Shown here one piece after another: positions 847 to 34,639 of a DNA stretch of 40,869 bases. Below the pieces are notes generated by a model. It was given only the letters and a program-made list of their open reading frames with translations. It searched no databases and had not been told where the DNA came from. Made by a program: the position numbers and the translations under genes. This stretch comes from Jimgerdemannia flammicorona. Lineage: Eukaryota. Position 1 is the stretch's first letter. Every line of letters starts with the position of its first letter. The DNA is taken from assembly GCA_003990765.1 (NCBI GenBank), contig RBNJ01000116.1, positions 1 through 40,869 of the forward strand, given 5' to 3'.

Positions 847-2072
847 TGTAACATGCCTGGCTCAATGGAGGCAAATTACAAGGTTGGGGGTTGATGTAGT
901 TTGGCTTGAGCCCCCGGTTACTTTGTTAAAAGTAACAAAATGTTCTTGGTATTTAGTGATATAATAATTAAAGCTGGATATCTGCAAGCGGTTTCCTTAT
1001 TTGGATGGTTCTCTGGGTGTAGCGGCGATTTGTGTATGACGGGTGATTTGGTGTAGCATGACAGGTTCCTTATGCGGTGCGATCTGGCAATTTAGCGGTT
1101 TTCCTTCTCTTGGATGACGGCAATCTCCAAAAGTATGCAATTTCTGTGTGACAATCTCTTTGTGTAGTGCGACGATCTCCAAAAGTATGTGATTTCTGGG
1201 TAATGGTGCGATTTGGCGGATAACTTAATTTGGGTGCGGATTCTCTTAAATTGGCGGACTTCTTGAATGTCGCGGAATCTTCTATACCGGGCTCACTGGG
1301 AATAGAGGATGGCGCGGATTCTTCCTGAATCAGCAGCTTACTGGGAATAATACTGGCGGCGGATAACTCAATAACTCAGGCTCTCTGGGAACAAACTGAT
1401 AACTCAGATGGCGCAGATTCTTGGCAAGTTACATCAAAGACTGGCTTCATTTGCATGGGGTTGCATCATAGACTGGCTCCACTGTGAAGTTACATCAGAT
1501 AGACTGGCTTGTGGCAAGGTTCCTTAAAGGCTCCCTGGGAATGCAGGTAACTTCTTCAGGCTTATCTGGCAAGTGAACCAAGGCTTTGTATCAGAAAGTA
1601 GACTGGAGTGGAAAAGGAATACTTTGCTCACAATCTCCTAGCAGTGGCTGTAGAGTTCCTCTCAAAGTGTAGTAGACAGACTTGTCTTTTGCTTTGGATT
1701 CAATTTCGGACTGAGGTTTATTCACTCTTGTCTCTGGGGTATTTTATACAGTTGTGGTTGCTATCTGGTTGCTATGTGGCTAACTATAGATTTGCTATCT
1801 ATAGCAAGTGTGCTGGTTCAGCACAGGTGTGCAAGTCTAGCATAGGTGTGCAACTCTAGCATAGGTATGCAACTCTAGCAAGGTGTGTAACTCTAGCACA
1901 GGTGTACAAGTCCTGCACAGATGTATCTTATAGTAGTCTGGCTATTTATACAGTTTTCTATAGCAATGGTTGCCGTGTCTGATTACTATGCTATGTATTT
2001 CATGTCATCTGGCTAATTGTTCATATCATCTGGCTAAGTTATAATTCAGGTGGTACATTTTGATTTGTCACA
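847..2072 (-). repeat. 3' LTR (1226 bp)
   Basis: Termini TGTAACA...TGTCACA; direct repeat of 9641-10806. Confidence 0.95.
1823..1920. repeat. ~20-bp tandem array in the LTR, (CAGGTGTGCAACTCTAGCA)n x~5; equivalent array at ~10553-10650
   Basis: Units directly visible in both LTRs. Confidence 0.9.
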
Positions 2073-2090: not shown

Positions 2091-2619
2091 TGGTCTATCC
2101 TCAGATTGTCCTTTAGTCATCATCTCAGTGTGGGTAAGCATCTTCTGCATCAATATCTGTTCCATCATCTTCATTATCTGTACCATAATTGCTCCATTCC
2201 AAGGGTTCTTCTTCTCCTTCTGGGAACAGGATTTCGACAGCATTGATGATGCTCAGGTATGTAGGTAGCCAGGTTCATTCTTCATATATCACACCAGGGA
2301 AATTGTGCTTGTAACAAGGCTGTAGGGTTATATTTATAAAGGGTGTAGAGCCTGTCTGCAGCAGTGATATCTCTTCTTGACAATCCCATGGTATTTCTGA
2401 TATATGTTTGTTCTGGGGCTGAGAGGTTCTGCAATTGTTCTCCAATTGTATAGTGGGCCTGAAGTTGATGGATCTGTAACAATTATCTGGTCAGGACAAG
2501 ATTCTCTTGATGAATCTGAATTCTCTAGAGAGTAGTCCCATTGATTTCTCAGAATTGGGTCAAAGGAACTGGCAGTAATTGAAATGAGCTAATGATAAGA
2601 GTCTGAAGGCAGTTATCAA

Positions 2620-3700
2620 CTCTCTGATTCATGATATGGAGAAAGGTATATCTTGAGGTGATTGATGTATACTGGTGTCTTCAGGGTTCATCCATCCATG
2701 CTTCTTAAATAGATGCTGGTTTCTCTGCTATTGTACACAAGATAAGGTTCTTCTCATTTAGGCTCCAATTTGGTGGCAAAGTTTGTTTCAATCATACTTC
2801 TCCAAACTAGTACTTGATCTCCAATCTTGATCTTCTGGTCCTTCTGTTTCTGGTCATAGTACTTCTTTTGTCTTTCTTGGGCTTTGGTAATTTGAACTTA
2901 GGTCTAATTATATAACTGTTCTGCCTTTTTGGAGAAATCTCTGAGGTTCTCATGATCAGCAGTTCTGGTCTTCTTGGCAAAAATCATTTCAAATGGCTTT
3001 TGTTTGGTAGAGGCAGAAGGGGTGTTCTGAATTTCCCATAGGATCTCAGATAAGCAAAGATCTCAGTTGGTAGGATTGACTCAGGCATGTTCTTTGTTGA
3101 TGGTCTAGTTCATTCTTTCTGTCATGCCATTGGTCTGAGGGTAGTATGATGTAGTTAATTTGAGGTGGATCTTGTGAATTTGAGCATAACTTGTGATTAT
3201 GGTATTGATGAATTCTGTACCTTGGTCAGAGATAAGTTCTTCTGAGAGTCTATATCTGAGTGTGAGTCTATAGAGAAGGCCTACAATGGTTAAGACATCT
3301 GCAATTTCTATTGGAAAAGCCTCAGGCCACTTGGTCAGATATTCCACAAATATAATAATATACTTATTTCTTCTTGATGTAACTGGTAGGGGTCCAATTA
3401 CATCTACTCCCCATCTCTGAAAGATGTTGTCTGGTGGTGCAATTGGTTACAGTAGTGTTTGGTAATTCTTCCTTCCTTGGTACTTCTGGCAGGTGTTGTA
3501 TTTCTTGAGTATGTTTCTGACTTGTATCCTGAGATTGAGCCAATGTTGATATGTTGTTTACAACTTTTCCTCTATGTTTGCTTGTCCTTGGTGGGCTTTC
3601 TGGTGTTCTTTTTGAATGAGTTCTTCTTGTACCTTGATAGTCTGAGGAGTTTTCTTTAGGGTGTAGTTCCTTAGAACACCCTTCTTCTGATTCATTGAGG
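2620..3700 (-). pseudogene. Gypsy integrase (rve core plus GPY/F module; no chromodomain seen)
   Basis: EYLTKWPEAFPI, ELISDQGTEF, TTSYYPQTNGMTERMN (3105-3347); K*EEPYLV (from KWEGPY) and TLKTPVYINHLKIY at ~2645-2760. Confidence 0.93.
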
Positions 3701-3819
3701 CTGGCAGGAAAGTACATCAATATTGTTGTGAGCTTTCCCTGCTTTGTAGATGATGGTGATTTTGTAATCCTGAAGAATAAGGATCCAATAGACCAGGATT
3801 CTAGTGGGTTTCTTATAGT

Positions 3820-4100
3820 TGAATAGTCATTTGAGGGCTGCATAGTCTGTGATTAGAGTGAATCTTTTTCTGATGAGATAATGCTTAAACAGAGTGACCA
3901 CCCATATGACTGCAAGGAATTTCAGTTTAGTGCTACCATAGTTCATCTGCTGCTGATTGGTGGCTTGACTTATATAAGCTATTACATAGTATTGTTGGTC
4001 AGGTCCTTCTTAGGCTAGAACTGCTCCTAGGCCATCTTTGGAAGCATCTGTATACAAGATGAATGACTTCTATAAATTGGGGCACACAAGGATTGGAGCT
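3820..4100 (-). pseudogene. Gypsy RNase H
   Basis: FILYTDASKDGLGAVLA; NYGSTKLKFLAVIWVV..FKHYL..RFTLITDY. Confidence 0.92.
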
Positions 4101-4149
4101 GAGGTCATGTAGTTCTTGAGTTCTTTGAAGGCTTTCTCTTATAATTATG

Positions 4150-5050
4150 TCCATTTATAAGGTACTCCTTTCTTGAGAAGGACTTGGATTAGGGTAGTGA
4201 TTTAGGCAAAGTCCTTGATAAATCTTCTGTAGTAGGATACCAGCATTAGGAATGATAGTGTTTCCTTTGGGGTCTTGAGTACTGGCCAGCTGTTGATCTT
4301 CTCAGTTTTCTTTGAGTCTACATGAGTTCCTTCTTTCGAAACTGTGAATCTAAGAAATTTAAGTTTCTGTTTCCCAAAATAGTATTTCTTAGTATTGAGT
4401 CTCAGGTAGTTCTTATGGGTGAGCTTGAAGAATTCCTCCAGATAGTGTAGGTGTTCTTCAAATTTGCTAAACAGATATTGGAATCATCTATATATACAAT
4501 TAGGCAGTAGTGGATCAAGAGGACATAGACTGAATTTATCATTCTCTAAAAGGTGGGGGGTATATTGCAAAGTCCAAAGGGTATTCAGAGGTATTCAAAC
4601 AGTTTTTCTAGGATAAAGAAGACTGTATTTTGAATGTCTTTTGGGTCTCAGGGGATCTTGTGGAATTCTGTGAAAAGGTCTATACTGCTGAAGTATCTGG
4701 TATCTTATAACTGATCCAAAAGGTCATTGATTCTTGACAAAGGATAGGTATCTTTTTCAGTAACTAAATCGAGTTTCCTGTAATCTACACAGAGTCTCCA
4801 TCCTCCTTTCTTTGGTATAATGAGTATAGGACTGGCCCAGGGGCTGGTAGAGGGTCAGATAACTCCATTGTCTAAGAGTTCTAGAATGTGCTCCTTTTTC
4901 AATGTTTTTAAGTGATGGGGTATTCTATAGGATTTCTGCTAGATGGGTGTTATATTTCCTGTATTTATGCTGTAGTGATATGATGGGTTATATGGTAGAT
5001 TGCCATAATTGGTAGTGAAGATATCTTGATATTTATTGAGGAGTTCTACT
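4150..5050 (-). pseudogene. Gypsy reverse transcriptase
   Basis: [45 protein letters not shown] at ~4484-4500. Confidence 0.95.
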
Positions 5051-5520
5051 AGTTATTGCCATTGTTGGGGTGTCAATTCTTCTCCAATGTTGGTGGAAGG
5101 CTTCTCTGTCTCCTGGATCACAGAGGGGTCTTTCCTTTCTTTTAGAACCTTTTGCCATTTCCCAAGAAGTTTAGTTCATAAACTTTTCTATAAGTTCAGT
5201 TGAGAAAAGGCACCAGATGTCCTATGATGGTTCCTTTTGACAAGATGATGGTTTCCCAACTTTGGTTGATTGCTTGGAAATGTGCTGGATTCTTCTTGTC
5301 AGAGAATATATATCCTTCTATGTCCAGGTGTGGGATATCTTCATTGGGTTCAAAGAAAATGTTTCTGGAGTCGGGAGGTGTAAAGATTTCGAAGGTAGTT
5401 TGTTCTCCAGGCTCCAGGATGAGATTCTTGTGCAGTTTAACTAGTTAGCAGTACACTTGCTGGAGAACATTCTTCTTGAGATAGTTGACTTGAAGGAGAT
5501 ATATGTACTTTCTTCTTATC

Positions 5521-5930
5521 TGAGCTTCCAAATTCTTTGGCTTGTCTTATTCCTTTGGTCAGTTCAGAGACTTCTTGTAGTTGTGGGGTTTTGACCTTCA
5601 TGAAGACTGCTTGGGCAATCTTCTGTCCTCTAATAATTCAGTGTTATTCTGTACTGCTGTTGTGTAAGATGACCTTGATTTCACCTGTATATCCTGGGTT
5701 AATGGTTCCTCCTTCTATGGTTATTCCTTGTCTAGCAAGTCCAGATCTTGAGGTCAGTTGGATGTAAGCTCCTTGGGGTAGCTGCATGGCTAGTCCAGTC
5801 TGATCATGAAAATTTTTCTAGACTTGATGAATTTATCCTCCAGAACATGAAGATCATATCTTATATCTTCTGAGTGAGCTTTGGTTAGAGGTTTGGCCTT
5901 GGGATACAGCAGGGCATATTGGGCAACATT
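5521..5930 (-). pseudogene. dut: dUTPase domain (trimeric type) within pol
   Basis: All five motifs are recognisable: EDIRYDL (AGYDL), TGLAMQLPQGAY..SRSGLA, GGTINPGYTGEIKVILHN, GQKIAQ, RQAKEFGSS (RGxxGFGS). One frameshift near 5800. Confidence 0.95.
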
Positions 5931-7219
5931 CTTGCTAAGTTTGGACTGTCCTTGGGCTGAGGCTCTACTAGCAGAGAGCCTCCAAGCTCTGAGGTTGAGG
6001 TGTGACCATCTGGCTCCAGTGGAGGGGTCTCAGAGATAGTTGATTCCTCTTCTTTCTGTAGGGTCTAGGGCTTCCATAAAGTTGGTGGCATCCTCTATCC
6101 ATCCTTGGCAGGTTACATGTCTGATGAGGGCTAGGATATCTTCTCCTAAATCATAAATCTTAAGGATCCTTCTTCCTGGCTTCTTGGTCTGGCTTTTTCA
6201 AATCTGGCCTCTGTTATCTACTCTTTTCAAGGTGTGGATTGCAATATCATGACTGAGATAAATCTTCTGATATCTGTAGTCTCAGCAGTCTGGGTGTCTT
6301 CTATAGTTGCAATATTCCATTGCTCAAAAATGATGTTCCCAGTTATTGATTTCTTGTTGTCTTGGGAATTGGTATCCATATTGGTCATAAGTTGGGAGAA
6401 GAGTAGACAAGGGGTATACTTCTGTTCAGGTGAAGAGACTTTATCCTCTGAATCAATTTTGCAACTTGGTGGTAACTTCTTGGAAGGTAGTTGACTGTGC
6501 AACTATATTCAGAGATTCTGGTCTCTGGGGTCTCTGTCTCTCCTATTGGTCTAGTAGATAGCACTGGTAGCAGTAGTCTTAGGAAGAGTGGAAGACTATT
6601 TGGTATGAACATCTTCTTAGCCAAAATGTCCTCTCTTGGTGAGTTTATTTCTTGGGAATAATGGGGATTGTGCTGGGTCTTTCTTCTATATTCTAAGGAT
6701 CATTGTCTTCAGGTGGTGTCCAGTGAGGGTCATCCCAGGGAATGAGTTCAGAGACCTCTTCTTCTTTAGGTACTTCTTGTTTAGGAACTTCTTGGTCAAG
6801 AGCTTCTTCTTCCACAGATGATTCTTGTCTCCAGATTGCTTATACTTCTGTGGCTTCAGTTATAGGTGTTTCTGGAATATGTCTGCATTTCTTCTTCTTC
6901 TTTCTGTACTCTGGGCAGGCTGTGCTAGGCAAATTCCTTGTTCCAATAATCTTGAAGGAGTGCTCAGGGCACTTGTATCTCTTGAGACAGATAGGGCATT
7001 CTTTGATTTCTCCTACAATGGCTCCAATAGTAATGGGTATGGTATTATTGGCCCATACATTGTCTTCTGGCCTGTCATCCACTGGGTTGATCCAGAGATT
7101 GAGTCTGGGATCATTTCCATCTTCAGATTCTTCTTTCTCTTCTGTAGTAGATTCTTCACTGCTGGTGTATTCTTTCCAAATAGTGATCTTCTTCTTCTTC
7201 TTTGATTGCTCATAGCTGG

Positions 7220-7580
7220 TCACCTTAACTCTATACTTCTTGTCTCAGTAGTTAAACTTGAGTATTTGTTGACTGATATCAACAACTGCATTCATTTCCT
7301 TCATCCAGTTGGTGCTAAGAATTATATCATAGGTGACAGCTTTAGTGACAATAGCTTTTGATATGGAGAACTGAATGTATCCCAGGGAGATAGTGATGTT
7401 TCATACTTCTCCAAGGGGTTGAGTTCGGGCTCCATCTGCTACTATGATGCTGAGGTTAGATAGTCTATCAATGGGCCATTGGAGGGTATCCAGGAACCAT
7501 TTGACAATGATACAGATAGCTACTCCTGTATCTATGAGGATTTTCACCTTTTGTCCTCCAATATCTCTATATAGGTAATT
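7220..7580 (-). pseudogene. Aspartic protease
   Basis: VKILIDTGVAICII; ADGARTQPLGE; YDIILSTNWM (DIILGxDW). Confidence 0.92.
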
Positions 7581-7949
7581 GCTGATATGTCTTTCTGCAG
7601 CTTAGATAGGAATGGGAGCTGGCTCTTGTTGTGGAATTGGAACTTGACTAGTGCTAGACCTAGTGGTTCTTAGCAATTTATTTCAGACTCCAGCTGGTAT
7701 CAGTTGCAGGAACCGCAGTAGAGGGACTTCTATTTTGGCCTCTTGAATCTTCTACCAGGCTTCATTATAGATGTCTCTAAGTATGGTCTTCAGGATGTAC
7801 TTCTTCTTGAGCTTTGAGACAGCAGGCTTCTGTTCTTTTTGTTCCATTTCTTTATCTTCTAGTGGCAGCTCATTTGTCTCAGGAATAAAAGGTGAGAGAG
7901 TTCAGGGAGATATTTCTACTTGCTCCTCTTCATGCTCTTCATCTTCTTC

Positions 7950-9253
7950 CTGAATAATTCTTCTGCTGATATTCCTGGATGGCCTTCCTATGGGTCTCTT
8001 CCTCTTCTCTACTAGATAGACTATTTTTCAGGTGATGACCTTGGTAGAGTACAAGTCCAGATCACTGTAGTCTTTACTATTGCTTGCTTCCTTGAAATCT
8101 TTAACAGGATGAGCTTCAGTCTTCTTGTACTGAGTGTCATTTCTTCATTTTGATGGTTCTGAGTCCCTTCAGTCACTCCTTTTATTATCACATTCAGTAG
8201 CATAGTGTCTAAATTGTCCACAGTGGAAGCATTGGACTTGGGCTCTGTCTTAGACAGGGTACCTTCTTTCTTCTTGCTGATAACTCCTGTTATCTCTAGA
8301 TAACCTTGGTTTCTTTATATCAGGTACCCTCTGTTATCTTGATAACTCTGATTTTTACATATGGTGAGTTTTTCAATCTATCTAACCAATTGGTCCAATT
8401 TGGAGCTGAGGTCTTGGATTTCACTCCTGTCCTTCTTTTCTTCTTTGGCTGGCCTTCTTTCTTCAGATCTTTCTTGTCCTTGAAGGAGTCCTTATAGGGC
8501 TTTGATCAGAATGTCTTCTTTATCTTCTTTCTTATCATGATCACTCCAGGTAGTTTCTTGTCTGATATCAAAGAATCCTTGGGCTATATCTACTTGCTCT
8601 TCAGACCTTCTAATACCTAGGGTGTGGACATACTGGGCAATGTTTGGGGGAATCTCATTCATGAAGATCATTGGACCTATGATGTCCTGGTTGATAGTAT
8701 TGAACCTGGTGGCATACATTCTCTTCTGGATTCTTGTGAAGAAGGCTCTGGATGATTCTCTAAGATTTGTCTTTATCTCTATGGTAGATTCTTGAGCCTT
8801 GTGGTAGGTTTCATTTCCTGTATATTTTTTGATGATCCAGTAAACCATGGCTATATATTCTAGCTCATAAGATGCCACTACTTATATCTGTCTCACCAGT
8901 TCTAAATGTGGGTTATTTGCTGTTCAGTGGAAAATTCCTCTGACTAGTTCTCTGAGCTGGGTCTTATAGATAGTGATTTTTCTTTTATCTGGGAGATTTC
9001 TCAGAGATGTAATTTCTTCAATTCCATCAAGGAATTCTCTGGGGTCTTCCTCCAGGTATCCTGCAAAGGTTGGCAATGAGGTGGCCATTTTGTCATCACT
9101 TTCTTCTAATTCTGGTTCTGGTCCGGATTCTGATTCTAATTTGCTTTCTGAACTATCACTGATAATGAGGGTGCTTGGGTATCTTGAGGATGATATTCTG
9201 GACCTTAGATGAAGTGAAATGAGCCTAGGTATTCTTATAAGAGCTATTTCCAA
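7950..9253 (-). pseudogene. Gypsy gag with CCHC zinc knuckle
   Basis: LPTFAGYLEEDPREFL capsid-like start; knuckle CFHCGQFRHYATEC at ~8191-8232. Confidence 0.85.
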
Positions 9254-9620
9254 TTCTGCAAGGGCTAGTGGTAAAGGTTCAATGGGTGAAATTGGTGGGA
9301 CTGATATGGGGTGTCTGGCTGTAAGATCTCAGGCTTGTGTAATAAGATCTTTTAGTTCTTGTGTAAGTTCTTCAAAATCTCCAACAGGGCCACCTGTGTT
9401 GTCTGGTTGATCTGGTTGAGAATTTCAGACTGTACTGGTTTCTGATTGGGATTCTTCTGATGCTGGGTAATTGGTAAGTCTTGAGGTGATTACTTCTCTT
9501 CCTGTCCAAATGCTGGTGATAACTAGTTCTTCTGTAGTGGTAGAGATTGGTGTTGTATCAAATGTATCCAGTTTGACTGTGGGTTCTTGTGAGCTAAAAA
9601 GTCATATCAATTTTGAAAAA

Positions 9621-9640: not shown

Positions 9641-10806
9641 TGTAACATGTCTGGCTCAATGGAGGCAAATTACAAGGTTGGGGGTTGATGTAGTTTGGCT
9701 TGAGCCCCCAGTTACTTTGTTAAAAGCAATAAAATGTAATTGGTGTTTAGTGATATAATAATTTAAGCTGGATATCTGCAAGTGGTTTTCTTATTTGGAT
9801 GGTTCTCTGGGTGTAGCAGCGATTTGTATATGACAGGCGATTTGGTGTAGCACGACAGGTTCCTTATGTGGTGCGATCTGGCAATTTAGCGGTTTTCCTT
9901 CTTGGATGACGGCGATCTCCAAAAGTATGCGATTTCTGAGTGATGGTGCGATTTGGCAGATAACTCGATTTGGGTGCGGATTCTCTTAAATTGGCGGACT
10001 TCTTGAATGTTACCGATTCTTCTATACCGGGCTCACTGGGAATAGAGGATGGCATGGATTCTTCCTGAATTGGCGGCTTACTGGGAATAATACTGGCAGC
10101 AGATAACTCAATTACTTGGGCTCTCTGGGAACAAACTAATAACTCGGATGGCGCAGATTCTTGGCAAGTTATGTCAAAGACTGGCTTCATTTGCACAGGG
10201 TTGCATCATAGACTGGCTTCACTGCGAAGTTGTGTCAGATAGACTGGCTTGTGGCAAGGTTCCTTAAAGGCTCCCTGGGAATGCAGGTAACTTCTTCAGG
10301 CTTATCTGGCAAGTGAACCAAGGCTTTGTATGACTGGAGTGGAAAAGGAATGTTTTGCTCACAATCTCCTAGCAGTGGCTGTAGAGTTCCTCTCAAAGTG
10401 TGGTAAGCAGACTTGTCTTTTGCTTTGGATTCAATTTCAGACTGAGGTTTATTCACTCTTGTCTCTGGGGTATTTTATACAGTTGTGGTTGCTATCTGGT
10501 TGCTATGTGGCTAACTATAGATTTGCTATCTATGGTAAGTATGCTGGTTTGGTACAGGTGTATAAGTCTAGCATAGGTGTACAACTCTAGTACAGGTGTG
10601 CAACTCTAGCACAGGTGTGCAACTCTAGCACAGGTGTGCAAGTCCTGCATAGATGTATCTTATCTGGTAGTCTGGCTATTTATATGGTTTTCTACAGCAA
10701 TGATTACTGTGTCTGATTACTATACTATGTATTTTATATCATCTGGCTAATTGTTCATATCATCTGGCTAAGTTATAATTTGGGTAGTATGTTTTGATTT
10801 ATCATA
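9641..10806 (-). repeat. 5' LTR (1166 bp)
   Basis: TGTAACA...TATCATA (mutated TGTCACA). Differs from the other LTR by transitions and by indels of 52, 9, 2, 2 and 1 nt. Confidence 0.95.
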
Positions 10807-10840
10807 CTATACATATCTACTTAATATAAGTATATAGTAT

Positions 10841-13096
10841 AGAGTGCTAAGAGAGATTATATTCATCCTTTTGAATATATAAATGAAACTTGTCATCAAT
10901 GCTATGATGGCAAACAAAGTCTGGAAGACACTCCTTTCTCTGCTATCTTACTGGTCACAAGGTTTGATAGACAATCTTCCAAGTTCACTTTCTCTAACTA
11001 ATAACCTCTCTACCTCAGGTTAGTTTGCTGTACCTGTTGCAGGATAGTGGGAGAGAGGCAATGGTGATGAGTTGTCCCTTTATCAGTATCAGATTGGTGT
11101 CTTCTCTACTTTTTTATAATTTCTGGTATCTTTGGCTGTATCTGGAATATACTTATTTTAGTGCAGTGTCTTCTTCCTTTTGTCATTACTAACAAGATGT
11201 CATTTTAGTATATTATGGGTTACATAGAGAGCCAGCCAACCTTGGGCATCAAGTGCTCAGTATAGGTTACCTGTAGGTCCTCAGTGCTTGTAGTGGAGCT
11301 CTCTGGCTTTGGTGAGCTTCTCAGTGAGTATAGTTCTGGCATAACTGACTGCTTTTCAGGTGATATTGGGATGAGAGAGAAGATGACTATCACAGATAGA
11401 AGAAAGAGTGATAATGATAGATCAGTAGAGTGTCAGACTGGGGGCAGTTGTCAGAACATTGGGTAGATACTGCTTCAGTGGGGCCTTTTGATTAGTATAG
11501 AGTAGTTAGGTGGTAGGTGTTACTCTTTTGGCAATTTGTGGAATTGGGTTCTGGTCATTGGGGGGGATTGAGGGACCCAAGGCTATCTATTTCAGATATC
11601 TTGGCTACACTCAACTAGAACTAAGAGCTGATGTAACAATATGATTGAGGTCTACAGGCTTGAGTAGTAGGGTATTGGGGGTCTCCTCCCATCTTACATA
11701 TAAGTTCTCTACTCATCTCACTTAGGAGAACCAGGCCCTATCTACTGTTCTGTACCTTGAGGAGGGTTTTTTCTTTATCTGTGACTTCTACTTAGAGTGG
11801 CAGAGACTATTCTATTCAGCTTGAGCATGGTCTTATATATATATTGGGATTTTGGATATAAACTTTTGGTCATTAGCATATGGCTGAGTTCTCTCTGGTA
11901 GTAGGGAGAGCATGGTATGTAGAATGAGATGCAGACTGCTATAGATCCTGCTGTATCTGGTATGGTTGAGCTGCTGAACAATAGCTAGCCTAAGTTTAAT
12001 GGGAGAGTAATGCTCAATAAGTGGTGGGGGAGGGGTTTGGCCTATATAGTCTAGGTTTTCTTTCAATAAAAATCTCTGAGTCCATTAAACAAAAACAAAA
12101 AACAAAAAACAAAAAACAAAAAACAAAGCCTAGAAGATCTTATACAATTACCACTAGCTGGTATCTATGTCAAACAGATTCTATCTAAAAGTACAACTGT
12201 TTAATATCTGAATGAAGTCCAAGGAGAGTATCCAGAACTATATCAATAGTATTGATGATCTAGTGAATTAAGTGAATTCCCTTTCTATGCCAGCAGACCT
12301 CATCAAGGATGAAGATAAGGTTTTAGTCCTTATGTATAGTCTTCCCAAGGCATATAATATAGTTGTTATTGTTATGAGAGAATTCAGCAAACTATTAGAC
12401 TATAAGTATATCATTATGAGTCTTTTAAATAAAGAATTGAGGCTGGGTGATAATGATAATGAAGATGATGAGAAAGTATTCTAGAGTATATAGATAAGAC
12501 AAAGGTAAGCTGAACAAAGGGTGAGAGCAAAACCAGTAGTATGATAGTTAGTATAATGGTCAATGAGTTAAATTTGATAGTAAATGCTTTTACTATAATA
12601 AGTATAGATACTACAAGCAAGACTACAACTATAAGAAGAAAGAAAAAGATAATCAATAGCAATAAAGATAATATAGATAGGTCAATATCATAGATATCAA
12701 TCATAATGAAGATAGCAGAGATAGCAAAGGTCTGTTCTTTACAGAAATAACAACCTATCCACATGCAGAGAGAGTTATAGAAGCAAATTTGGAAAATATT
12801 TTTACATTGATGAAAAATGCACCAACTATCAGTTCTACTAATTTCAGTACTAGTACCAATATAAGCTATATATTGAGTACTTATAAAAAAGTCTGACTTA
12901 TAGATTCCAGTATAATATATATATTCTATTTTTATATCTAGACTCTATATCATATACTATCCAGAAGATTGCACACTCTTCTGACTACTTTATATTTCAA
13001 TCAGATAGTCAGACACTATATAATAAGAAGCACAATATCAAATATTAACTGAAAGACTATACTTTATGTTTTTTTTATATTCTATATTTTTAATCT
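10841..13096 (+). pseudogene. Ty1/Copia gag-protease relic, split by a LINE fragment
   Basis: ANKVWK|ILY reads across the LINE TSD. UBN2-type gag DEDKVLVLMYSLPKAY..SLLNKELR; degenerate knuckle KCFYYNKYRYYKQDY at ~12582-12625; *LIDSS (WLxDSG) at ~12895. Confidence 0.75.
10929..12120 (+). mobile_element. 5'-truncated LINE (family A 3' end) with (A5-6C)n tail
   Basis: Inverted homologue of 13800-14968; AATAAA at 12065; 17-bp TSD AAACAAAG(T/C)CT(G/A)GAAGA at 10912-10928 and 12121-12137. Confidence 0.92.
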
Positions 13097-13770
13097 TATA
13101 ATAAATCAATTAGTACTAGTATATATTTATATATTAAGCTAGTATAGAAATATACCAAGTTACTATCCAAATTAGTTACTATAATTTAGCTATATATTAT
13201 ATTAGGTATACTAGACAATTAGGACTACTCTACTATACCAACTTGTATAAATAACCCAGATAGCCAAATGAGGGTACAAAGTATTCCTAGCTGATATACT
13301 GTATTAGAATTTGAGATTAATATTTCTAGCTGACACACTATATCAGATTTTGAGATTCATATCCTTAATAGAAATAGTTAAACATTACTAGAAATAGTAA
13401 TCTATAGTTAGCTATATAGTAATTAGATAGTAACTACAACTGTATAAAATTCTCCAAAGAGTTGAGTAAATAAACCTCAGTCTGAAAAGTTATAGAAAAG
13501 TAGAGAGCTTCCTTTTTCTACTCCAGTCTACTTTCTGATAGAAAGTCTGATTTGTTATCAAGTTGAGTAAAGAACTTTACTGCTATTTTAAAGAAGAAGT
13601 CCACCACTTAAAGTCAGTCTAGTATAAGATATACCTTTATAGTAAATAACCCAGTTTGTATAAAGGAAGTAGTCTTTGACATAACTTTGCTCAAGAGAAG
13701 CCTGCCACTTAAAGCCAGTCTAGTATAAGATATACCTTTGCAGTAAATCTGTTTACATAAATGAAGTAGT

Positions 13771-13802: not shown

Positions 13803-14832
13803 GGACTCATGTCTCATGGATTTTTATTAGAAGGGAACCTAGACTATATAGGCCAAAACCCTCCCCTACCACCCACCAAGTACTGCCACCCCATTAACCT
13901 AGGCTAGCTATTGTCCAGCAGCTCGACCATACCAGGCGCAGCAGGGCCAAAAAGGCCTGCACCTCATTCTGCGCACCATGCTCTCCCTACCACCAGGGGA
14001 AACCCAATCATATGCCAATGACTGAAAGCACATGCCTGAGAACCCAACATATGTACAAGGCCACACTTGAGCCGAATAGAATAGCCTCTGCTACCCCAAA
14101 GAGAATGACAGGCAAAGAAAAAACTCTCATCAAAGCACAATATAGTGGGTAGGGCCTGGTTCTCCCAGTTGAGATGAGTAAAGGACTTACACATGAGGCA
14201 GGAGGAAACCCCCAATACCCCACTACTCAAGCCTGTGGGCCTTGATCATATTGCCATATCAGCTCCCAGTTCCAGTTGAGTGCAGCCAAGATATCTGAAA
14301 TGGGTAGCCTCAGGCCTCCTGACCCCCTCTGACGACTGGGGCCCAACTCTGCTGACTGCCAAAAGAAGCTGATAGTGACACCTACCACCTAACTGTGCCA
14401 CACCAATCAAAAGGCCCCACCGAAGCAGTACCTGCCCCAGCCCTGATGACTGCCCCCAGCCTGGCACCCTACTGGTTTACCATAATCACCCTTCCTCCTA
14501 TCTGTGATGGCCATCTCCCCTCCCATCCTGACAATACCCGAAAAGCAGTCATCTATGCTAGAACCGTGCTCACTGGGAAGCTCGCCAAAGCCAGAGAGCC
14601 CCACTATAGGTACCGAGGACCTGCAGGTAACCTACACTGAGCACTTGATGCCCAAGGTTGGCCAACTCCCTACATAGCCCGAGATACACCAAGACAACAC
14701 CTTGTTGGTGATGGCAAAAGGAAGAAGGCACCACACCAAAATGGGTACACCCCAGATGTAGCCAAAGGCACCAGAATCCACAAAAAAGTGGAGGAAGCAC
14801 CAATCTAACACCGATAAAGGAGTAACTCATCA

Positions 14833-17800
14833 CTATTGCCCTCCTCCCACCATGCCTCTGTAGGTACAGCAAACCAACCCGAGGTAGAGGGGGTAATAAT
14901 AGGGGAAAGGGAACTCAGAAGATTGCCTACCAAACCTTATGACTGGTAAGATAGTGGAGAAAGGAGCAAGCTCCCCAAGCTCTGTCACCTCCTATCCTCA
15001 AAAACAAATAACCAGTGACCAGCTAGCCTAACCCAAATAGCCAATGCCCAGCCTAAGGTAATCTACTCCTTTTCTACCCCTCCTACCAATTGATCCCTCA
15101 AGTCCTCCCACCTCTCCCATACTTCACCTCTCCTATGCCTCACTCTCAAGTAGTCCCCGATGGCCTGCCAAAAGTCTCCCAATACCTTACACTCTCCTAG
15201 CCAATGTTCTGGCATCTGTACAAAGTCTCCTTCCTGCCCTACATTATGGCACTCCTTACAGTTGAAGCAACCCCCAATGATAAGATGCTCTGAGCAGAAG
15301 TTGAGCATTACATTCCTCCTCAGTATATACCACCAGACCACCCAGTACTTCAGCAGCATCTATTTTTGCACTATGGTACTCTAGGTCCAAACACTATACC
15401 AGTCCCACTCTTCTCCAATTCCAACTCCTTGCCAACTGCTAGGCCACAGATCCTGGCCTGGTCCCCTTTGGCATTCTATTCCATCACCAATATCAAACTC
15501 AAGTAAAGGTATGCCACCCAGCAGTATGCCATCCCATCTCCACATTGCTAGGTCCCAAGCCTCCTCCCCCTCATTCCCCTGCCAGCGAATACCAATATGG
15601 TGTGCTCTCTCTGCTATTCTCTACCAGAAACCTTTATATCACAATTATACAGTGTTCTGAAGTCCAATCAATGAGAGAAGATCACCAGTTGAGCCTCTTG
15701 GTGATGATCACCTCTCCCAGACCTTCTGCAGCAGGAGAACCCAATCCCCTCCTCACAACTCCACTGCCCTCCTAAGCCACCATACTCTCAAGCAGTGTAG
15801 TCATTTGGGAAAGTCCACCAGCCCAAGACCACCTCTTGCCACCAGTAGGGACAAGGTCTCTCAACCAATCTGACTCCATCTACCAGCCCAAATCCATCCC
15901 TTGGCCACCTTCACCAATCTCTTCACTATCTAGATCAGGAAGTCTAGATAATAAGCCAAATACCACAGCTTTGGCAGCCAATATACATTCAAAATCGAGA
16001 CCTGTCCTGCCAGAGAAAAGTGTCTTCCCCCCCAACCCTGCAGGTCCTCCTCCCAAATTCCAATTTACTGCTCCCACAAAAGACTGGGCAGAACTGACCC
16101 ATAGACTGATAAGTAGATGCCCAAGTACTGTACTGCCTCACTGGTGGGGACAATTGTTCCAATAACTTCTCCTCCCACTAGGCTGTTGCCTAGCACCATT
16201 GTTTCACACTTGTACCAATTCAGCTTTACTCCAGAGTTCTCCTCATACCACTCCACTGTCTTCTTGAGCTCCTCGATATCAGCAATCAATTCCAAGCCAA
16301 TCACCATATCATCCACAAAGGCCCCAACTTTCCACCCAATACCATAGATAGAGAGTCCCACTATCCTCTACCTAATTCTGTCCATTAGGGGTTCCAGGAA
16401 AAGAGCATACAAAATGGAGGACAGTGGGTCCCCCTGGGGCACCCTCCTACCCAGAGGGAATGCAATCTCTCTATACCTATTACACAAGAGTGCAGCCCTA
16501 CTCCCTTCCAGTAGGTTGACCATAGCTGACCAAAATTGGATCAGAACCCCCATTCTATCCAATACTTTCACCAGCCAGACTTATCACACCTAGTTATAAG
16601 CCTTCTCCTGGTCCAAGAAGACTAGATGCCCATCCAGTCCACAGGCTCTAGCCCCTTCAATAACTCCATGTACTCAGGCTGTACCATCTCTAATGAGCTG
16701 ACCACCCACAAATCCCCTCTGCTCAACACCTATAACTTGCTGGGCTACCTTCTGTAGCCTTGCAACTACCACCTTAGTCACCAACTTTCTGTCCATATCT
16801 AGCAACATTATTGGCTGCCAGTTCTTTCAATTCTCTTGCCTCCTTTTGTTCTTATAAAGCAGCATCACCAGCCCAAGATCCTACTCCCCCACCCATCTCC
16901 CTGTCTGCAAAATAGAGTCACATAATGCCATCAACTCTCTCATCACACCTGGGACTCCAACCATTTGTTTCCAGAAGTCCCAGGGTAGGCCATCCTCTCC
17001 AGGTGCTGTACCTGAGGCTATTGTGGCAAGAACCTGGTGGATCTCATCCTCCTTCACTGGCATCACCAGGTCACCTAGTCTCTCAACTTGTGGTGGGTGC
17101 CAATTCTCCAATATTTGATTAATGGCAGTAGCATCTGCCCCACCCTCCTCCTTGCTCCACAATCCACTCCATCACTCCTTCAGTAATCCAAGAATATCCT
17201 GTACACCATGCACTAGCACACCATCTAAGTCAAGTACTCCTTTCCACCATTGCTGTACCCTCCTTGCCCTAAGTGTCTTTGTGAGAAACTTGGAAGGCCT
17301 CTCTCCTTCCTCCAGCCCCTGCCAACAAAGCTGTGCTACCAAGCTTTGCACCCTTGCCTCTTCCTCTTCCTGCAGCACCTGTTGTAGTTCCCCAACCTCC
17401 ATCTTCACCCTCATTAACCTCCAATCTTCTTCTCCCTCCACCATTACCAGTCTCACCCACTCCTCCAGAAGTCTAGCCAATCTAGTAGAAGCCCAATGCA
17501 CTCTCTGCCTTCACTGCTTCCCTGCCTCCTTGCCGGCCTTGCTCTAGTATATTCTGGCCATCTCTTTCATCCTTATCTACCAAACCCCAATTGAGGCACC
17601 TTCCTGCCACCAGTTCTCCACCCTCAGCTGAATATCTTTAGCCCACTCCTCTCACTGGGACTCATCATCTAACAAGGAGGAATTTAGGCACCAATGTCCA
17701 GGCCCATCCCCACTTCCCCCAAAGCACCCCTGTCCCAAAAGGCCCCAGTGATCCAACCATGGACACCATTCCACCTCCAGTGACTTCCAAACATCTCGGC

Positions 17801-18428
17801 CCCAACAGTTGGATGTTAGAATCCAGTCTATCCTTGTCTCCAGGCCTCCAGCCCAATGCATATATACCTTCCTATCTCTCCAGTACTCTCTACCAGCATC
17901 TATCAGCACTCCTAGTCTTTTGACTTCCTCCCACATCACCAGCCCCCCACTCCTGCTCTCAGCACCCTGTCCTCCATCAGTTCTATCTATCTGTATATCC
18001 CAAACCATATTGAAATCACCCCCAAGCATATCCACCCCAGCCTCTACAAGGATTCCACTCTCCTGGAGACCCTTCACCCAATCTATATGCTCTCCCCATA
18101 TGGCAGAGCAGTAATAGGAGCTAACTGTAACTGGCTCCCAGCCTGCCCAAATCCACTCACCCCAGACCAGCCTCTCTCCCCAGCTCCTCATGTCTCTTAT
18201 CTCCCCTCTGCTTTTCCAAACCAGAATCCTGATCTTGCCATTCCAAATCACCATACCACCCCATTCCTTTGTCCATTCCATCCTATTAGAGTCATCCTCA
18301 TACCTAACATCCTGCAAGAGGAAGAGATCAGCCTCCAATCCCTTCAGCTAAATAAAAATGTTCTTATGTCTAACAGCACCCTGTAGCCCATTCACATTCA
18401 ATGAAAAAATATTGGTTGTACTGTTCAT
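14833..18428 (-). pseudogene. LINE-A ORF2: APE endonuclease, RT and C-terminal Cys/His region
   Basis: MNSTTNIFSLNVNGL, FLLQDV, GGDFN, TRIDW, LDHW; LEEGERPSKF; APGEDGLP; FLDQEKAY, VPQGDPLS, AFVDDM, YLGI; CKEC...EHWLGEC. Confidence 0.93.
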
Positions 18429-18457
18429 AATGAATATGATTTGTTATCAGTCAATCT

Positions 18458-20424
18458 CTACTGCTCTATGCTCATCTCCTTCTGTGCTATATCCAGATTA
18501 TGTTCTGCTATCACCTCCTCCTCTTCAGCCCTCTGAGCCTCCAATCCAGCCAACAGCTCAATCATCTCTCCATCTGCCTTCTCCTCAAACTCCTTCTGAT
18601 ACTCAATGCAGGCCTCCTGCCAAAGCTGCAATCTATGATACTTGTTCCAACAGTACTCAGCCCTCTCCCCAGCAACAACTGCCATCTCTGCCTCCTGCTC
18701 CTTGTCTACCTCATACCCTTCCTCCTCCAGATACACCATAAGAATTTCCACCTTCAGTGCCATCATCACTCCATCCCTCTGCAATATCTGCACCCAGTGA
18801 TCATCATCCATCACTCTCAGGTCCACCTTTCCCAACTCTTCTGCTGCTAGGTTATTTATCATCCTGCACATCCAAAGTAGGTTTCCCACCTCCTTCCCTC
18901 CAGGGGTCACTGGCCTCTCTCTATCCAGCATTGTGGTACCAGCTCCAGCACTCACAGCCTCATCCCATATCTCTGGGACATCTACCAGTTTCTCCTCCCT
19001 GGCCACCACCACATGTCTCCTGGTCATCACCTCTGGAATGCCGAATTTCACCTGATGGGTCCCCAGCATTGTCACATCCTCCACAATCTTGTTTCTGGAA
19101 GCCAGGCCTCACCTGATAAGAGGAGAAGGAGTGGGGGAATTCTCCCAGACCTCATCCCAAACCTCCAAGATGCCATCAGTATATGGGTCAATAATCTTCA
19201 CCTCCTTCACCTTCCCTGCCTCCTCCCTGGTATTCCCACTCCTCTCACCAGCCCAGACACTTGCTTTGGCCTCTTCTATGCCCATCATCTTGCTCACATC
19301 CTCCTGTGGTCTGCCTCTCAGTTTAGCCAGCAGATCCTTCTGTTTCTTATGCTCCTGAGCTCTTTCCCACTGTACCTTGTCCACTTGAATCCTCTTTCCA
19401 TCCACCACCTCCAGGTGCATCAACTCTACAAAAGCCTTCCAAGCCTTTGCTTGTCACTCTATAGCACTATTCAATTCTTCCAGCACTTCCAATAAATCCT
19501 CTTCCTTCTCTTCACTTCCTTTCACCCTCATCACCTTGCACAAGATCACTCCCCAGACCATCACTGAAGGCCAGTCCCTTGCCTTCCCAGTAGCTTCTTT
19601 CTCAGCCAGCTGAATCCTCACATCCACATCCCCAGTCCTGAGTGAGGTCCCTTCCCAGACCCTGAATCCAATATCCACTACCTCTCCATACTCTGCTATG
19701 ACATCTTCAACTCTCTTTCTTGTCTCTATTGCTGTCACTGTGAGCACTCCTTTCACCAGCAGTTGGACTACCCTCGGATCCCATTTCAGACATCTCACCA
19801 TTGAAATACACACCTCTCCAACCACCAACCCAACCTTCAGTACCTCCTCCAGTGGCTCAGCCTTCTCAAAACCCATCTCCACACCCTCCAGTCCCTTCAA
19901 AAACTTTACTGATGCAGCTTCTGCCACCTGCTTAGTGATAAGCCCTAGCACCATTTTCACTATCACTGCTAAGCCCCAGAAGCACAGTATAACTGCAAAT
20001 ACTGAGATTGATTTTTTGAGTAATGGGACCACCACTAGGTCTGTTATGCCATCTATCAAATTTTCTTGTCTTTCAAGCCTCAGCTGCTCAGCCTTACCAA
20101 CAGCCATCATATCTGGATTTTTTTTCCAGATTGGCAGTCCTGTTACCATCAGCAGTCACACTCCCCCCAGCTGTAACTCCCCCAGCTCCACTGCTCCCCC
20201 TTCCAAGGGCTACTCTCTCATGCACCGCTCCCTTCTCAGTCTCCTTACCCCTCCTCAGCCAGCCCTCCAGCCCTGATATCTGCTGTCTTTCCTTCACTAT
20301 CTCTACAAAGCTCACCCTCTCAGACCCTTATCCTCTACTAGTACTACCACTCCTTCCTTATCCTCCTGCCAGCAGCTCCCTCATGCCCCCCCCCAGGCCT
20401 GGGCCCCTCCCTACCTGCTGCCAT
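18458..20424 (-). pseudogene. LINE-A ORF1 (RRM-like core, acidic/coiled C-terminal half)
   Basis: RCLKWDP..LLVKGV..YGEVVDIGFRVWEGT.LRTGD; homologous to LINE-B ORF1; lies upstream of ORF2. Confidence 0.8.
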
Positions 20425-20536
20425 TTGAAAGCACTTGGGCCACCCTGCCCAGTACATATCTCAGATTGCCTATCGGTCACTATGTTATTAGTCTCTTTAC
20501 TCTAAAAACGATGTTGTAAGTGCCTTCCAAAGGTTG

Positions 20537-27556: not shown

Positions 27557-28000
27557 CGTTGTTGCTAGATTGGAGTGGAAATAGCACGACCATTTAATAT
27601 ACGTCCACTTTTAAAGTTACCTCTGGTGGACTAAAGAAACCGGACGTCACACAGGAGGAAAGTCACTTTTTAAGCGGTCACCTCATTTATCCATATGCCG
27701 AAATGTGACGCATACTACCGATGACGCGGCCCTGAACCACGGGAAGCGGCATTAATATTGCCGTTATTTTCAAATTCTAAACTGATCTGGTATCAAGGTG
27801 ACGCTTTCCACGATCTTCCAAGCTTCAAAGTCCCAGCGCCTGCGGCTACGCCTCATGAAATGCGAACTTGACTACCAACCCCAATTCTTTTTAGACACCC
27901 AGATCTTTAGGATATCATGTGATTCTAAGCTACACAGCCTAGAATCACATGATCACCAATGGCGTCCGTACTCCACCTATCTTTGAGGCCCACTTACACA
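27557..28000 (-). promoter_or_regulatory. Putative SDR promoter / single-copy CpG-retaining DNA
   Basis: CpG abundant, unlike the flanks; TATATTAAA on the minus strand ~40 nt upstream of the ATG. Confidence 0.5.
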
Positions 28001-28199
28001 AATATTTTTTTCCAAAAACAGCTTCATTTAATTGTAGGAAAACTAATTAACTATAAATCTACAAGCTCTTTTTAAATATTTTAAAGGATAAGGTTTTGAA
28101 GATCTTATTATTGATTAATAATGTTTTAAATTACTGCTATAATATAACTTGTTAAGTAGTCATAATCATGATCTAAAAAGAAATGTTTGACCATTGTCT

Positions 28200-29436
28200 G
28201 CTTATTGCTCACTGTCTTTCATTACTATATATCTTACTATATAATATATTTAATCTTAAATAAGTATTAAATATTATTGAGATAGTAACTTGATATATTA
28301 GTATATAACTTTATTTCATTATATTAGTTTTACATCATTCATCAATAATATGTGAAATATATAACTTACATATTTTGAATAAATTACTTCTTCTATTCAT
28401 CACTATAAAGATTATAAGCTCTGATTAGTGGCTAGAAACTTCTCTAGTATATATACTATACTGTAAAATATATAAGTATATATATTAAGTATAAGTATCT
28501 AATAATAGAAAATATAGTCCTGTTGTAAGTACAAATGAACATAGTCATTAACAGCTCAGGTACAGTGAGGAAGTCTGCTAAGATAGTGATATTGAAGTTC
28601 TCTCTGATGGCAGAAGATAATTACAACAAAGATATCTACTTAGATATTAGAGGTAAAGTCTCTCTAGTAGTAGAAATAACTATAAAGTTCTCTAAAGTAG
28701 CAAAGGTAATTATAATAACAAAGTTCTCTCTGGTGATAGAGGTAATTCTCCCAGATGGTAGGTGAAGTTCTCTTAAGATAGTGGGTGATTATACTAGTCC
28801 AGATAGTTAAGGTAATGAATGAAAATAGAAAAGCCTTTTATAGCTTTTATAGATATAACAAATAATAATAAAATTAGTAAAAATATAGTAAACAAGATCA
28901 ATAAAACTGATATAGTCATTAATGAGACTAACAAGATCAGAAATATGGTCAGCAATAAGGCAGAGCTGATAAGACTATAGAAAAGACCAATGAGATCAAT
29001 ATAGCTAATATATATAAGTATCTATATCTAATAGAGATAATAGCAATAAGAAAGTCTTCTATAACTTTTACAAATAAGGTCAAAAGTATAGTCAGGTTAA
29101 GTTTGAAGATAATTTTGACTACTGTAGAAAATATAGATACTATAAATATAAATACTATAAAAAGAAACAAGAGAAACATAGTAATAATAATTATTATAAG
29201 AAATATATAAGACAGTATAGCAATAATATTATTATAGTAATAGAGACCAGTATAGTAGCTATATAATCTATACTAATAATAGTATATTTATTATATAAGT
29301 AACATTCATACAAGTAATATTTATATAAATAACCAGTATTAGTTCTACTATTGACCTAATATCTATATATAAACTCTAGTCAGCTATATGCTTTTATACA
29401 TACTAATAAAAGTAGTGATGTCTATAGTACAGATAG

Positions 29437-29473
<37 letters not shown>

Positions 29474-30350
29474 GTCTCTTGGACTGTAGTACAGATAGTA
29501 CTATCAACTATATATTTAGTAAAAGTATAAATATAGCTAATGAAAATAAAGATAATATCTAAAAAATAGATTTGACATAATATAATATATAATATTATAC
29601 TATATATATAAGGAATAATAGTTAGTACTAATAAAATAATCTATAGACCTATTTGATGATAATTTTCAATTATCAAAAAATAGATATAAATCTAGAGTTT
29701 GAACAATAAGGCAGAAATATTCTATTACTAAAAAATTAATAAAAATAACAATGATTAAGCAGAGATATTAATATAATATCTATAATTAATAATATCTATA
29801 ATATCTACTTCTATAATACTAACTAATCTATAACTAGAAAACAATATTATATAATTAGATTGTCTCTCTATAATAGATATAATAATAGTCTTATAAGTAG
29901 TTGATCATAAGACTTTTTAGATACATATATATGCAAAAGTCTCTTACTATATATAATATTTACATTATTTTTTTATTTATATTATCTATATATATCTTAT
30001 ATTTTACATTATATTTTCTATAAGTATTTCAGATATTATAGAATAGTTTTAATCTATAAAAATTTTAAAGATAGTTATAATTCTAAATTATATATAATTA
30101 GTTCCAGTTTTTTGTATATATTATATATTACTTTTTATTCTAGTTTATATTAGATATAATTTTTTTTTTTTTTTAGTTTTGATATATATATTTTCTTGAG
30201 CAAGAGTGTTATAATAGCAACTATATATATTATATATGACTTTATCCTATTCTATCAATTCTATATCATTTATCAATAATATATAAAATATATAATTTAT
30301 ATATTTTGAATAAATTACTTCTTTTATTCATCATTATAGATATATTATAA
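28200..30350 (+). mobile_element. Highly decayed, internally deleted Copia-like element
   Basis: Direct repeats ~28330-28410 and ~30260-30340 (LTR-like). Degenerate knuckle KFEDNFDYCRKYRYY at ~29100-29150. 29930-29950 resembles the post-pol sequence of the other Copias. Confidence 0.5.
29441..29483 (-). mobile_element. Ultra-truncated LINE insertion (13 nt plus A30)
   Basis: 19-bp TSD CT(A/G)TAGTACAGATAGTACT at 29422-29440 and 29484-29502. The insert ATAGTCTCTTGGA resembles the LINE-B 3' end ATAGTTACTTAGA. Confidence 0.85.
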
Positions 30351-30842
30351 AGATTAAATATATTTATAATCTTATTTATTTATTCTCTTTTATTATTAGC
30401 TTATATATTATATTAGTTGTTTATTAATATTATGCTATATATATATATTAAAAAAAAAATTAAAAATTTAAAAGATTTCATAGACAAATTTACCTACAAA
30501 AATATACAACCTATTAGTTAAAGAGATATTTAGTTATAGACTATCTGTCATCCAGATTACCAGCTCAATCAGTATTACATATACTAGATAACCTTATAGT
30601 ACTCTCACTTCGTCTCTTATTATTGCAATCCATACTGAGCATATAGTATACCATGCCTTTAATATACTGAAAAATATTCATAATTGCTATTCAATAGATA
30701 TTATTATAGCAGAATGAGTATTGTGCCACTTTATTGACTATATACAATATATTAGACCTCATCTCAAGTACAAGATATATCAGAGATTACAATGCTTATC
30801 AATAGAGAATATTATTATCTTTAAGTATAGTATTACTAGACT

Positions 30843-30899
<57 letters not shown>

Positions 30900-30995
30900 G
30901 TTACTTAGACTTCTTTATTTAGACTATCTAAAATGCTATTACAATGAAATTAACCATATCCGCTATAGTAATATATCATATTTAAGTAAGTTTGG

Positions 30996-33900: not shown

Positions 33901-34628
33901 GCCACTTAAAATCTGCCACATATCTCCACTTCCCAATGATCTGACCAAGGGCACCAACACACCTCAGCAACATCTAGTACATTACCCCAATACTTAGCTA
34001 CCAGCACCCAATCAATTTATGTCCCAACTAATTTATCTCCCACTGAGTGCTACTGGGTTAATGGTCCTGACTCATCTCTCTGATGCCAACAGACACCATC
34101 CACCAGTCTCATATCATGCTCCACCTGAAGCCACTAAGACAGCCCAGGGGAAACTGCTATGCCTGCCCCTCTATCTGACCTGTTCAGTATCCTATCATGC
34201 ACCATATTGAAATCCCCCCCCAGAATGTCCAGTGCCACTACCTCCCAACCTTCCCAAGCCCACCAGTCCTCAACCCATTGCTTTCACTCTCTGCCAACTG
34301 CAGGGAGATAAACCAAGCCTACTGCTAGACCATCATCTGCCCTTCCTTTTAGCCTTCCCCACACCAATCTATCACTATAAACCTTGACCTCCACCAGCTC
34401 ACCTTGACCAACATCAACCAGGATGCCCACCTGCTTGTTCCAACCTGTACCACTATACCATTCTATACTCCACATCTCAAAGTCCTGCTCTCCATATACC
34501 CAAACATCCTGAAGGAAAACAATATCATATCTTCTGACTTTAAGCCATTGAAATAGTTGCCTCTTAATGCCATCACACAACCCATTGATGTTGATTGATA
34601 ATATGTGTAAACTGTTCATCATCATCAA
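30996..34628 (-). pseudogene. LINE-B ORF2 (APE-RT)
   Basis: MNSLHILSININGL, VFLQDV, GGDFN, WSDHW, LEEGERPTKY, SSPGEDELP, FLDQEKAYDRV, ILQGDPLSPLLY, VFVDDM, SLVGRIVVLN. Confidence 0.93.
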
Positions 34629-34639
34629 AGAAATATTTA

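Follow-up and report, generated by a model that had tools for sequence, protein, structure and literature searches.

The window analysed here is a contig of 40,869 nucleotides from Jimgerdemannia flammicorona. It contains a Ty3/gypsy (Metaviridae) LTR retrotransposon of ~10 kb, which is encoded on the minus strand, is bounded by two long terminal repeats (LTRs) and carries the target duplication TACTAT on both flanks (Table 1). Pfam searches, in which stop codons were read as the letter X, give the domain order gag, aspartic protease (PR), an unmatched segment (referred to below as segment X, or simply X), dUTPase, reverse transcriptase (RT), RNase H (RH) and integrase (IN). The gag region has no Pfam gag or zf-CCHC match at E ≤ 0.01 and was recognised from the features listed in the table. 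Two relatives align with the PR region, and the alignments of relatives are unbroken across 2364-5270.

Table 1. Features of the Ty3/gypsy element and of segment X, in window coordinates.
Feature	Position	Strand	Evidence and remarks
5' LTR	9641..10804	minus	TG...CA ends; TACTAT at 10805-10810
gag region	7700..9300	minus	CCHC knuckle motif at 8231-8190 in read-through translation; three-base periodicity p 6e-5
Aspartic protease (PR)	7253..7562	minus	Asp_protease_2 E 7.4e-5, RVP_2 E 4.4e-4; active-site DTG 7541-7518
X, segment a: protease tail, Lys run, first acidic Ser/Glu-rich linker	7101..7252	minus	70% identical in frame to P0121; disorder-like composition
X, segment b: Cys/His block	6843..7100	minus	CxxC-x5-CxxH at 7001-6960; within 134-codon stop-free run
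X, segment c: second acidic linker, then LIPWDDP motif	6624..6842	minus	LIPWDDP at 6746-6726; P0122 aligns 6761-6624, 54%, same frame
X, segment d: central stretch	6321..6623	minus	6 of the 13 stops; no positive codon score
X, segment e: C-terminal block adjoining dUTPase	5937..6320	minus	positive codon score; periodicity p 0.04
dUTPase, trimeric-type	5520..5936	minus	PF00692 E 4.5e-16 at about 5802-5520
Pre-RT linker, RT, RNase H, integrase	3135..5519	minus	across three frames
RT (RVT_1)	about 4818-4450	minus	Pfam 2e-11
RNase H (RT_RNaseH_2)	about 4150-3760	minus	Pfam 1.1e-27
Integrase	about 3630-3135	minus	Pfam rve 1.3e-4 and Integrase_H2C2 1.8e-3
3' LTR	847..2070	minus	TG...CA ends; TACTAT at 841-846

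The copy in the window is dead and heavily decayed. Its Pol is scattered over three frames, and the five recognised domains contain 14 stops in 615 codons (one per ~44 codons). The recognised domains score approximately one third to one half of what intact relatives reach; RVT_1, for example, scores 44.5 bits here and 95-140 bits in relatives, and rve scores 22.6 bits here and about 28-83 bits in relatives. This decay is transition-driven, with strong loss of CpG. Between the two LTRs (847-2070 and 9641-10804), identity is 87.8% over 1227 aligned positions; they differ by 78 transitions and 6 transversions, with 40 of the 84 differences in CpG context. The observed/expected ratio of CpG is low throughout, at 0.13 for the element and 0.11 for the window as a whole. 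In a comparison of 121 retrieved polyproteins with the element, which comprises 367 alignments and counts positions many times, the His residues of the relatives lie opposite Tyr of the element in 23% of cases and opposite His in 16%, whilst Gln lies opposite a stop in 9%, Trp opposite a stop in 11% and Glu opposite Lys in 17%.

Several further features are present elsewhere in the window. A copia-type gag fragment (PF14223, E 8.5e-12) is located at about 12125-12442 on the plus strand, just outside the gypsy element, and short inverted fragments at 13385-13548 that are 81-90% identical to the LTR parts 10435-10538 and 1581-1619 look like the remnant of a related LTR. Two blocks, at 14000-20500 and 31000-36500, contain non-LTR (LINE-like) reverse transcriptases, with RVT_1 at about 16113-16829 (minus) and at 32304-32771 (minus) respectively; these blocks have a GC content of about 0.5, an extreme GC skew of about -0.45 on the plus strand and a CpG observed/expected ratio of 0.06. 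Very AT-rich blocks (GC 0.19-0.28) lie between the repeats at 1-1000, 28000-31000 and 37000-40000. On the minus strand, an open frame at 40463-40867 runs off the end of the window and may be another retroelement; its weak match to the Pol beta-barrel (PF22936, E 0.008) is below the cut-off.

Segment X extends from 7253 down to about 5937 on the minus strand, spans 439 codons and has no Pfam match. A sequence-only reading of this DNA had singled out 5935..7215 as an unexplained insert between protease and dUTPase; its coordinates were right, and the strand, which it left unstated, is the minus strand. It had also described one frame that continues from the end of the protease to the start of the dUTPase with only scattered stops. 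PR and the start of the dUTPase do lie in one common frame, in which 13 of the 439 codons of X are stops, but about 6620-6320 within this frame has no coding signal. Among 2000 shuffles of the sequence, 25.7 ± 4.8 stops are expected and 0.4% of the shuffles have 13 or fewer, and the stop density of X resembles that of the recognised domains. The PR frame does not stand out by its number of stops alone, since another minus frame has 16 stops over X and the codon-aligned antisense frame has 12.

Codon usage and periodicity provide further measures of coding. A log-likelihood score for codons, for which the five recognised domains of the element served as training set, favours the PR frame over 7700-6740 and over 6320-5840. 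Three-base periodicity is found over 7253-6741 (p 0.0014) and over 6320-5937 (p 0.04), with values of 7e-5 to 0.065 for the known domains and 0.7 for the LTRs as controls. Coding is thus supported in the N-terminal 170 and the C-terminal 128 codons of X. In the middle of X there is no positive codon score in any frame and no three-base periodicity over 6740-6321 (p 0.30), and the ~100 central codons at about 6620-6320 contain six of the 13 stops; this stretch is compatible with compensating frameshifts or with non-coding sequence.

X can be subdivided into five segments (referred to as a-e). A run of 134 codons without stops extends over 7244-6843, which is long for this copy and could hint at constraint or recent conversion. 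Segment b, which contains the Cys/His block, has weak periodicity (p 0.20 over 7100-6840), holds one of three windows of X with folded-like composition and has no Pfam, PDB or usable ESM Atlas match. In segment c, an imperfect 15-nt tandem repeat at 6758-6811 (3.6 copies, 79% matches) encodes the acidic linker, which suggests that the second acidic linker grew via local duplication. Frames other than the PR frame are open around segment d at 6699-6385 and 6502-6227, and segment e is probably coding in the PR frame.

Only two proteins match X in a phmmer search against 1.84 billion representative proteins, and both are short fragments. P0121 (77 aa, E 7.8e-9) aligns to 7319-7101 with 70% identity and reaches from the PR end into the first acidic linker, whilst P0122 (59 aa, E 2.6e-5) aligns to 6761-6624 with 54% identity. 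They cover residues 2-51 and 163-210 of X, both in the PR frame, and have R, W and E opposite three stops of X. Both are ENA singletons, each on one contig of 1076 bases, and they provide the one other copy available for comparison, which is fragmentary. This second copy contains the PR-to-X junction and residues ~163-210 of X, so the junction and at least the first ~210 codons of X are, as judged from aligned sequence, a family trait that is read in the same frame.

Other searches on X were negative. Pfam gave nothing in six frames at E ≤ 10, NCBIfam nothing in the three minus frames at E ≤ 1 and PDB sequences nothing in the three minus frames; no homologue of X was found among the long proteins (1338-4258 aa) of a set of 5.8 billion, and the best phmmer match among the 121 retrieved polyproteins (E 0.16) is not significant. 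The ESM Atlas gave no usable match for two stop-free stretches of X (134 and 55 aa), and none of the 288 pattern matches from a scan of bacterial and archaeal genomes was confirmed. Two candidates were rejected, namely an Rfam match with E 0.98 and the MarR-type regulator 3bpv_A, which matches the C-terminal block together with the start of the dUTPase at chance level (PDB E 1.3). Little weight can be placed on these negative results: in this heavily decayed copy even the recognised domains reach scores far lower than in relatives, and a diverged folded domain in X could therefore have been missed.

The size of X is best appreciated from the spacing of the flanking domains. Spacing was measured in 30 of the 121 retrieved relatives, chosen for a protease flagged in their annotation and for a combined length of under 50,000 residues. 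From the end of the PR model to the start of RVT_1, 29 of the 30 have 132-327 residues and one (P0051) has 498, with a median of about 240, and the corresponding distance in the element is 812 residues; this supports the earlier remark that standard Gypsy pol has nothing this large at this position. The distance from the end of the dUTPase to the start of RVT_1 in the element is 234 residues, which is the usual PR-to-RVT_1 spacing, and relatives align up to 5270, so X and the dUTPase together form the surplus, directly after PR. P0051 (2044 aa, NCBI source) is similar to the element in that its oversized PR-RT interval contains no Pfam domain at E ≤ 1e-5; it differs in that it lacks a dUTPase, and its similarity to X is not significant (best E 1.5 in the search of 121 proteins). 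Additional modules are also present elsewhere in gypsy-like relatives: in P0007 a viral fusion glycoprotein (PF24664, E 1.8e-105) precedes PR, P0009 carries a Macro domain that separates RNase H from IN, and P0099 includes part of a Dam-like methyltransferase.

The dUTPase is located between PR and RT. Its first motif lies upstream of the Pfam match, at 5873-5850 and in the PR frame, and there is a one-base frame break near 5795. There are 71 matching dUTPases in the PDB (best 3mbq_A, E 5.2e-16, with an alignment that continues through the last motif), and none of these matches reaches upstream into X. A tandem-dUTPase origin of X was rejected, as X has no similarity to the rest of the window, the dUTPase included. 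Of the 120 RT/RNase H relatives listed, none has a PF00692 match. A search of long polyproteins with the dUTPase region retrieved P0123 as the only dUTPase-bearing polyprotein; its dUTPase follows the integrase, unlike the PR-dUTPase-RT order of the element, and its RT is about 30% identical. Just past the dUTPase, at 5520-5270, ~80 residues have neither an alignment to relatives nor a Pfam model and may represent another unexplained stretch, smaller than X.

Composition places X on the disordered side of the charge-hydropathy plot, with a mean hydropathy of 0.395 compared with a boundary of 0.416. Among 20 forty-residue windows, 17 are disorder-like and three are folded-like (residues 61-100, 241-280 and 361-400), whilst all five control domains of the same decayed copy are folded-like by the same measure. 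Most of X is hydrophilic, acidic and probably intrinsically disordered, and its composition points to a spacer more than to globular proteins; the disorder is judged by composition only, and by a composition itself altered by transition decay. Two or three short patches of higher hydrophobicity may represent small modules. Acidic stretches had been noted in the sequence-only reading and are confirmed here. The same reading had seen a globular-looking C-terminal part, which the structure prediction does not support: single-sequence AlphaFold models have a mean pLDDT of 33.7 (all of X) and 33.2 (last 128 residues), and the last ~70 residues are predicted as helical at very low confidence.

The Cys clusters pointed out in that reading are present, with 11 Cys codons in X (nine TGC and two TGT), but some of them may be decayed Arg codons. 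All 31 Arg codons of X are AGA or AGG and none is CGN, there are 11 TGG codons, and seven of the 13 stops are TGA. Since CpG decay turns CGY into TGY and no CGN is left, part of the Cys richness of X, and of its Tyr richness, may be mutational. No zinc-finger family model matches X in Pfam at E ≤ 10 and there is no PDB match, and neither P0121 nor P0122 spans the Cys block.

The explanation preferred here, which is put forward tentatively and as somewhat short of probable, is that X is a lineage-specific and mostly disordered junction region of Pol that is translated together with PR and the dUTPase. X would be translated in the protease frame as part of a PR-X-dUTPase-RT-RH-IN polyprotein, and could subsequently be excised by the protease or left attached. 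As a long spacer, it may enable a dimeric PR and a trimeric dUTPase to assemble from one precursor, and it may carry cleavage sites and possibly time the activation of PR. Taken as such, X appears to be a region of ~420 residues in the Pol of a dUTPase-carrying Ty3/gypsy element that seems to match nothing known beyond its own family. It is unlikely that the protease frees from X one or several folded accessory proteins with a function of their own, for example in binding nucleic acid or chromatin via the Cys/His block, or with a helical C-terminal domain. The CxxC-x5-CxxH motif, the three folded-like windows and the helical prediction for the last ~70 residues are consistent with such proteins, as are descriptions of LTR retrotransposons that capture extra domains (PMC5408684, PMC6431247), among them a Zn knuckle beside the dUTPase in bdelloid Juno elements (PMC5408684). 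Against these features are set the lack of any match in Pfam, NCBIfam or PDB when thresholds were permissive, in the frames searched, the low pLDDT of both the whole of X and its C-terminal part, the two stop-free stretches without a usable ESM Atlas match, and a Cys block that may derive from Arg, given the missing CGN codons and the number of TGA stops, and that lies outside the coverage of the second copy. The homology and fold searches gave no sign of separate accessory proteins or of an action of X on the host or on silencing, and the analysis decides neither for nor against an accessory-protein role. Quite unlikely is that X is a so far undescribed accessory module of Pol from an unsampled Ty3/gypsy lineage, acquired with or beside the dUTPase, in which at least one part truly folds (a small zinc-binding block, a helical domain by the dUTPase, or both) and has a nucleic-acid or chromatin role beyond that of a plain linker.

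The adjacency of X and the dUTPase, which together make up the surplus over the PR-RT layout, could also be explained if X were a foreign (host or viral) coding remnant, captured with the dUTPase in one event as a passenger and now an orphan. Separate retrotransposon lineages appear to have gained dUTPase independently of one another (PMC2864245), a point in favour of such a capture; it is nonetheless improbable, as only two same-family fragments among the 1.84 billion representatives resemble X, no PDB dUTPase match extends into X and X is similar to no other part of the window. More improbable still is that X includes non-coding sequence, chiefly at about 6620-6320, which is spliced out or bypassed in the manner of plant Ogre elements, for which an intron between the protease and RT frames is described (PMC6317226). 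This would account for a central stretch that lacks periodicity and a positive codon score and holds almost half of the stops, but both of its flanks are coding-like in one frame, its base composition and strand skew are the same as those of the rest of the element, and the excess of stops could stem from decayed Gln, Arg or Trp codons. Highly improbable is a nested unrelated element or an opposite-strand gene within X. The plus-strand open frames at 6727-7215 and 6150-6494 (162 and 114 codons) and the low number of stops in the codon-aligned antisense frame would suit a gene on that strand; antisense stops arise opposite the sense codons TTA, CTA and TCA, however, so an open antisense frame is expected opposite a sense frame rich in Glu, Lys and Ser, and Pfam has no match there in any of six frames. 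A match to a known nested element had been named beforehand as grounds for rejecting the insert. The start of X is contiguous with PR in the second copy, no direct or inverted terminal repeats bound X and there are no foreign protein matches; X is thus not a nested insertion that this copy alone carries.

The J region of yeast Ty3 is reportedly ~10 kDa in size and dispensable. X is similar to it in lying directly after PR and in having no recognised enzymatic domain, a likeness that is one of position only, and differs from it in being about four to five times longer (439 codons) and in being followed by a dUTPase instead of RT; the order in Ty3 Gag3-Pol3 is given as PR-J-RT-IN (PMC5371799). 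Ogre elements resemble the element in having stops in a stretch that separates PR from RT; the counterpart in X is the central ~100 codons without coding signal. The Ogre spacer, however, averages 274 bp and separates two open reading frames, whereas the flanks in X are coding-like in one frame and its first ~210 codons are conserved as protein in the second copy.

A dUTPase between PR and RT is described for PosPlaTy3-5 of Postia placenta, for elements of Phanerochaete chrysosporium and Tuber melanosporum, for Juno, Vesta and TelKA of bdelloid rotifers and for a giant gypsy element of planarians (PMC2864245, PMC5408684, PMC6431247), and in Entomophthora muscae dUTPase and protease domains are described as enriched (bioRxiv 10.1101/2023.09.13.557621). 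The known dUTPase-bearing Ty3/gypsy elements have the same PR-dUTPase-RT-RH-IN order and the same trimeric type of dUTPase as the element described here, which differs from PosPlaTy3-5, Tmt1, Juno/Vesta and the others, to which it is likened by description only, in its ~420 extra residues between PR and dUTPase. A long PR-dUTPase region is not mentioned for the known elements in the available portions of PMC2864245, PMC5408684 and PMC6431247. The element thus belongs to a known kind, the dUTPase-bearing Ty3/gypsy elements, and what appears new is the orphan region of ~420 residues that follows PR and is represented by one dead copy and one fragment.

Retrotransposon Pol proteins acquire extra modules, of which dUTPase is a known case. 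In repeats decayed at CpG, apparent motifs rich in Cys and Tyr can be mutational artefacts, and X calls for caution in this respect. As a single, heavily decayed copy, the element is at present of value mainly as a pointer to a poorly sampled family of elements. Should intact copies bear it out, an orphan region of 420 residues that accompanies a dUTPase directly after the protease would be a new accessory region in Ty3/gypsy architecture, and would provide a natural case for the effect of long disordered spacers on polyprotein processing.
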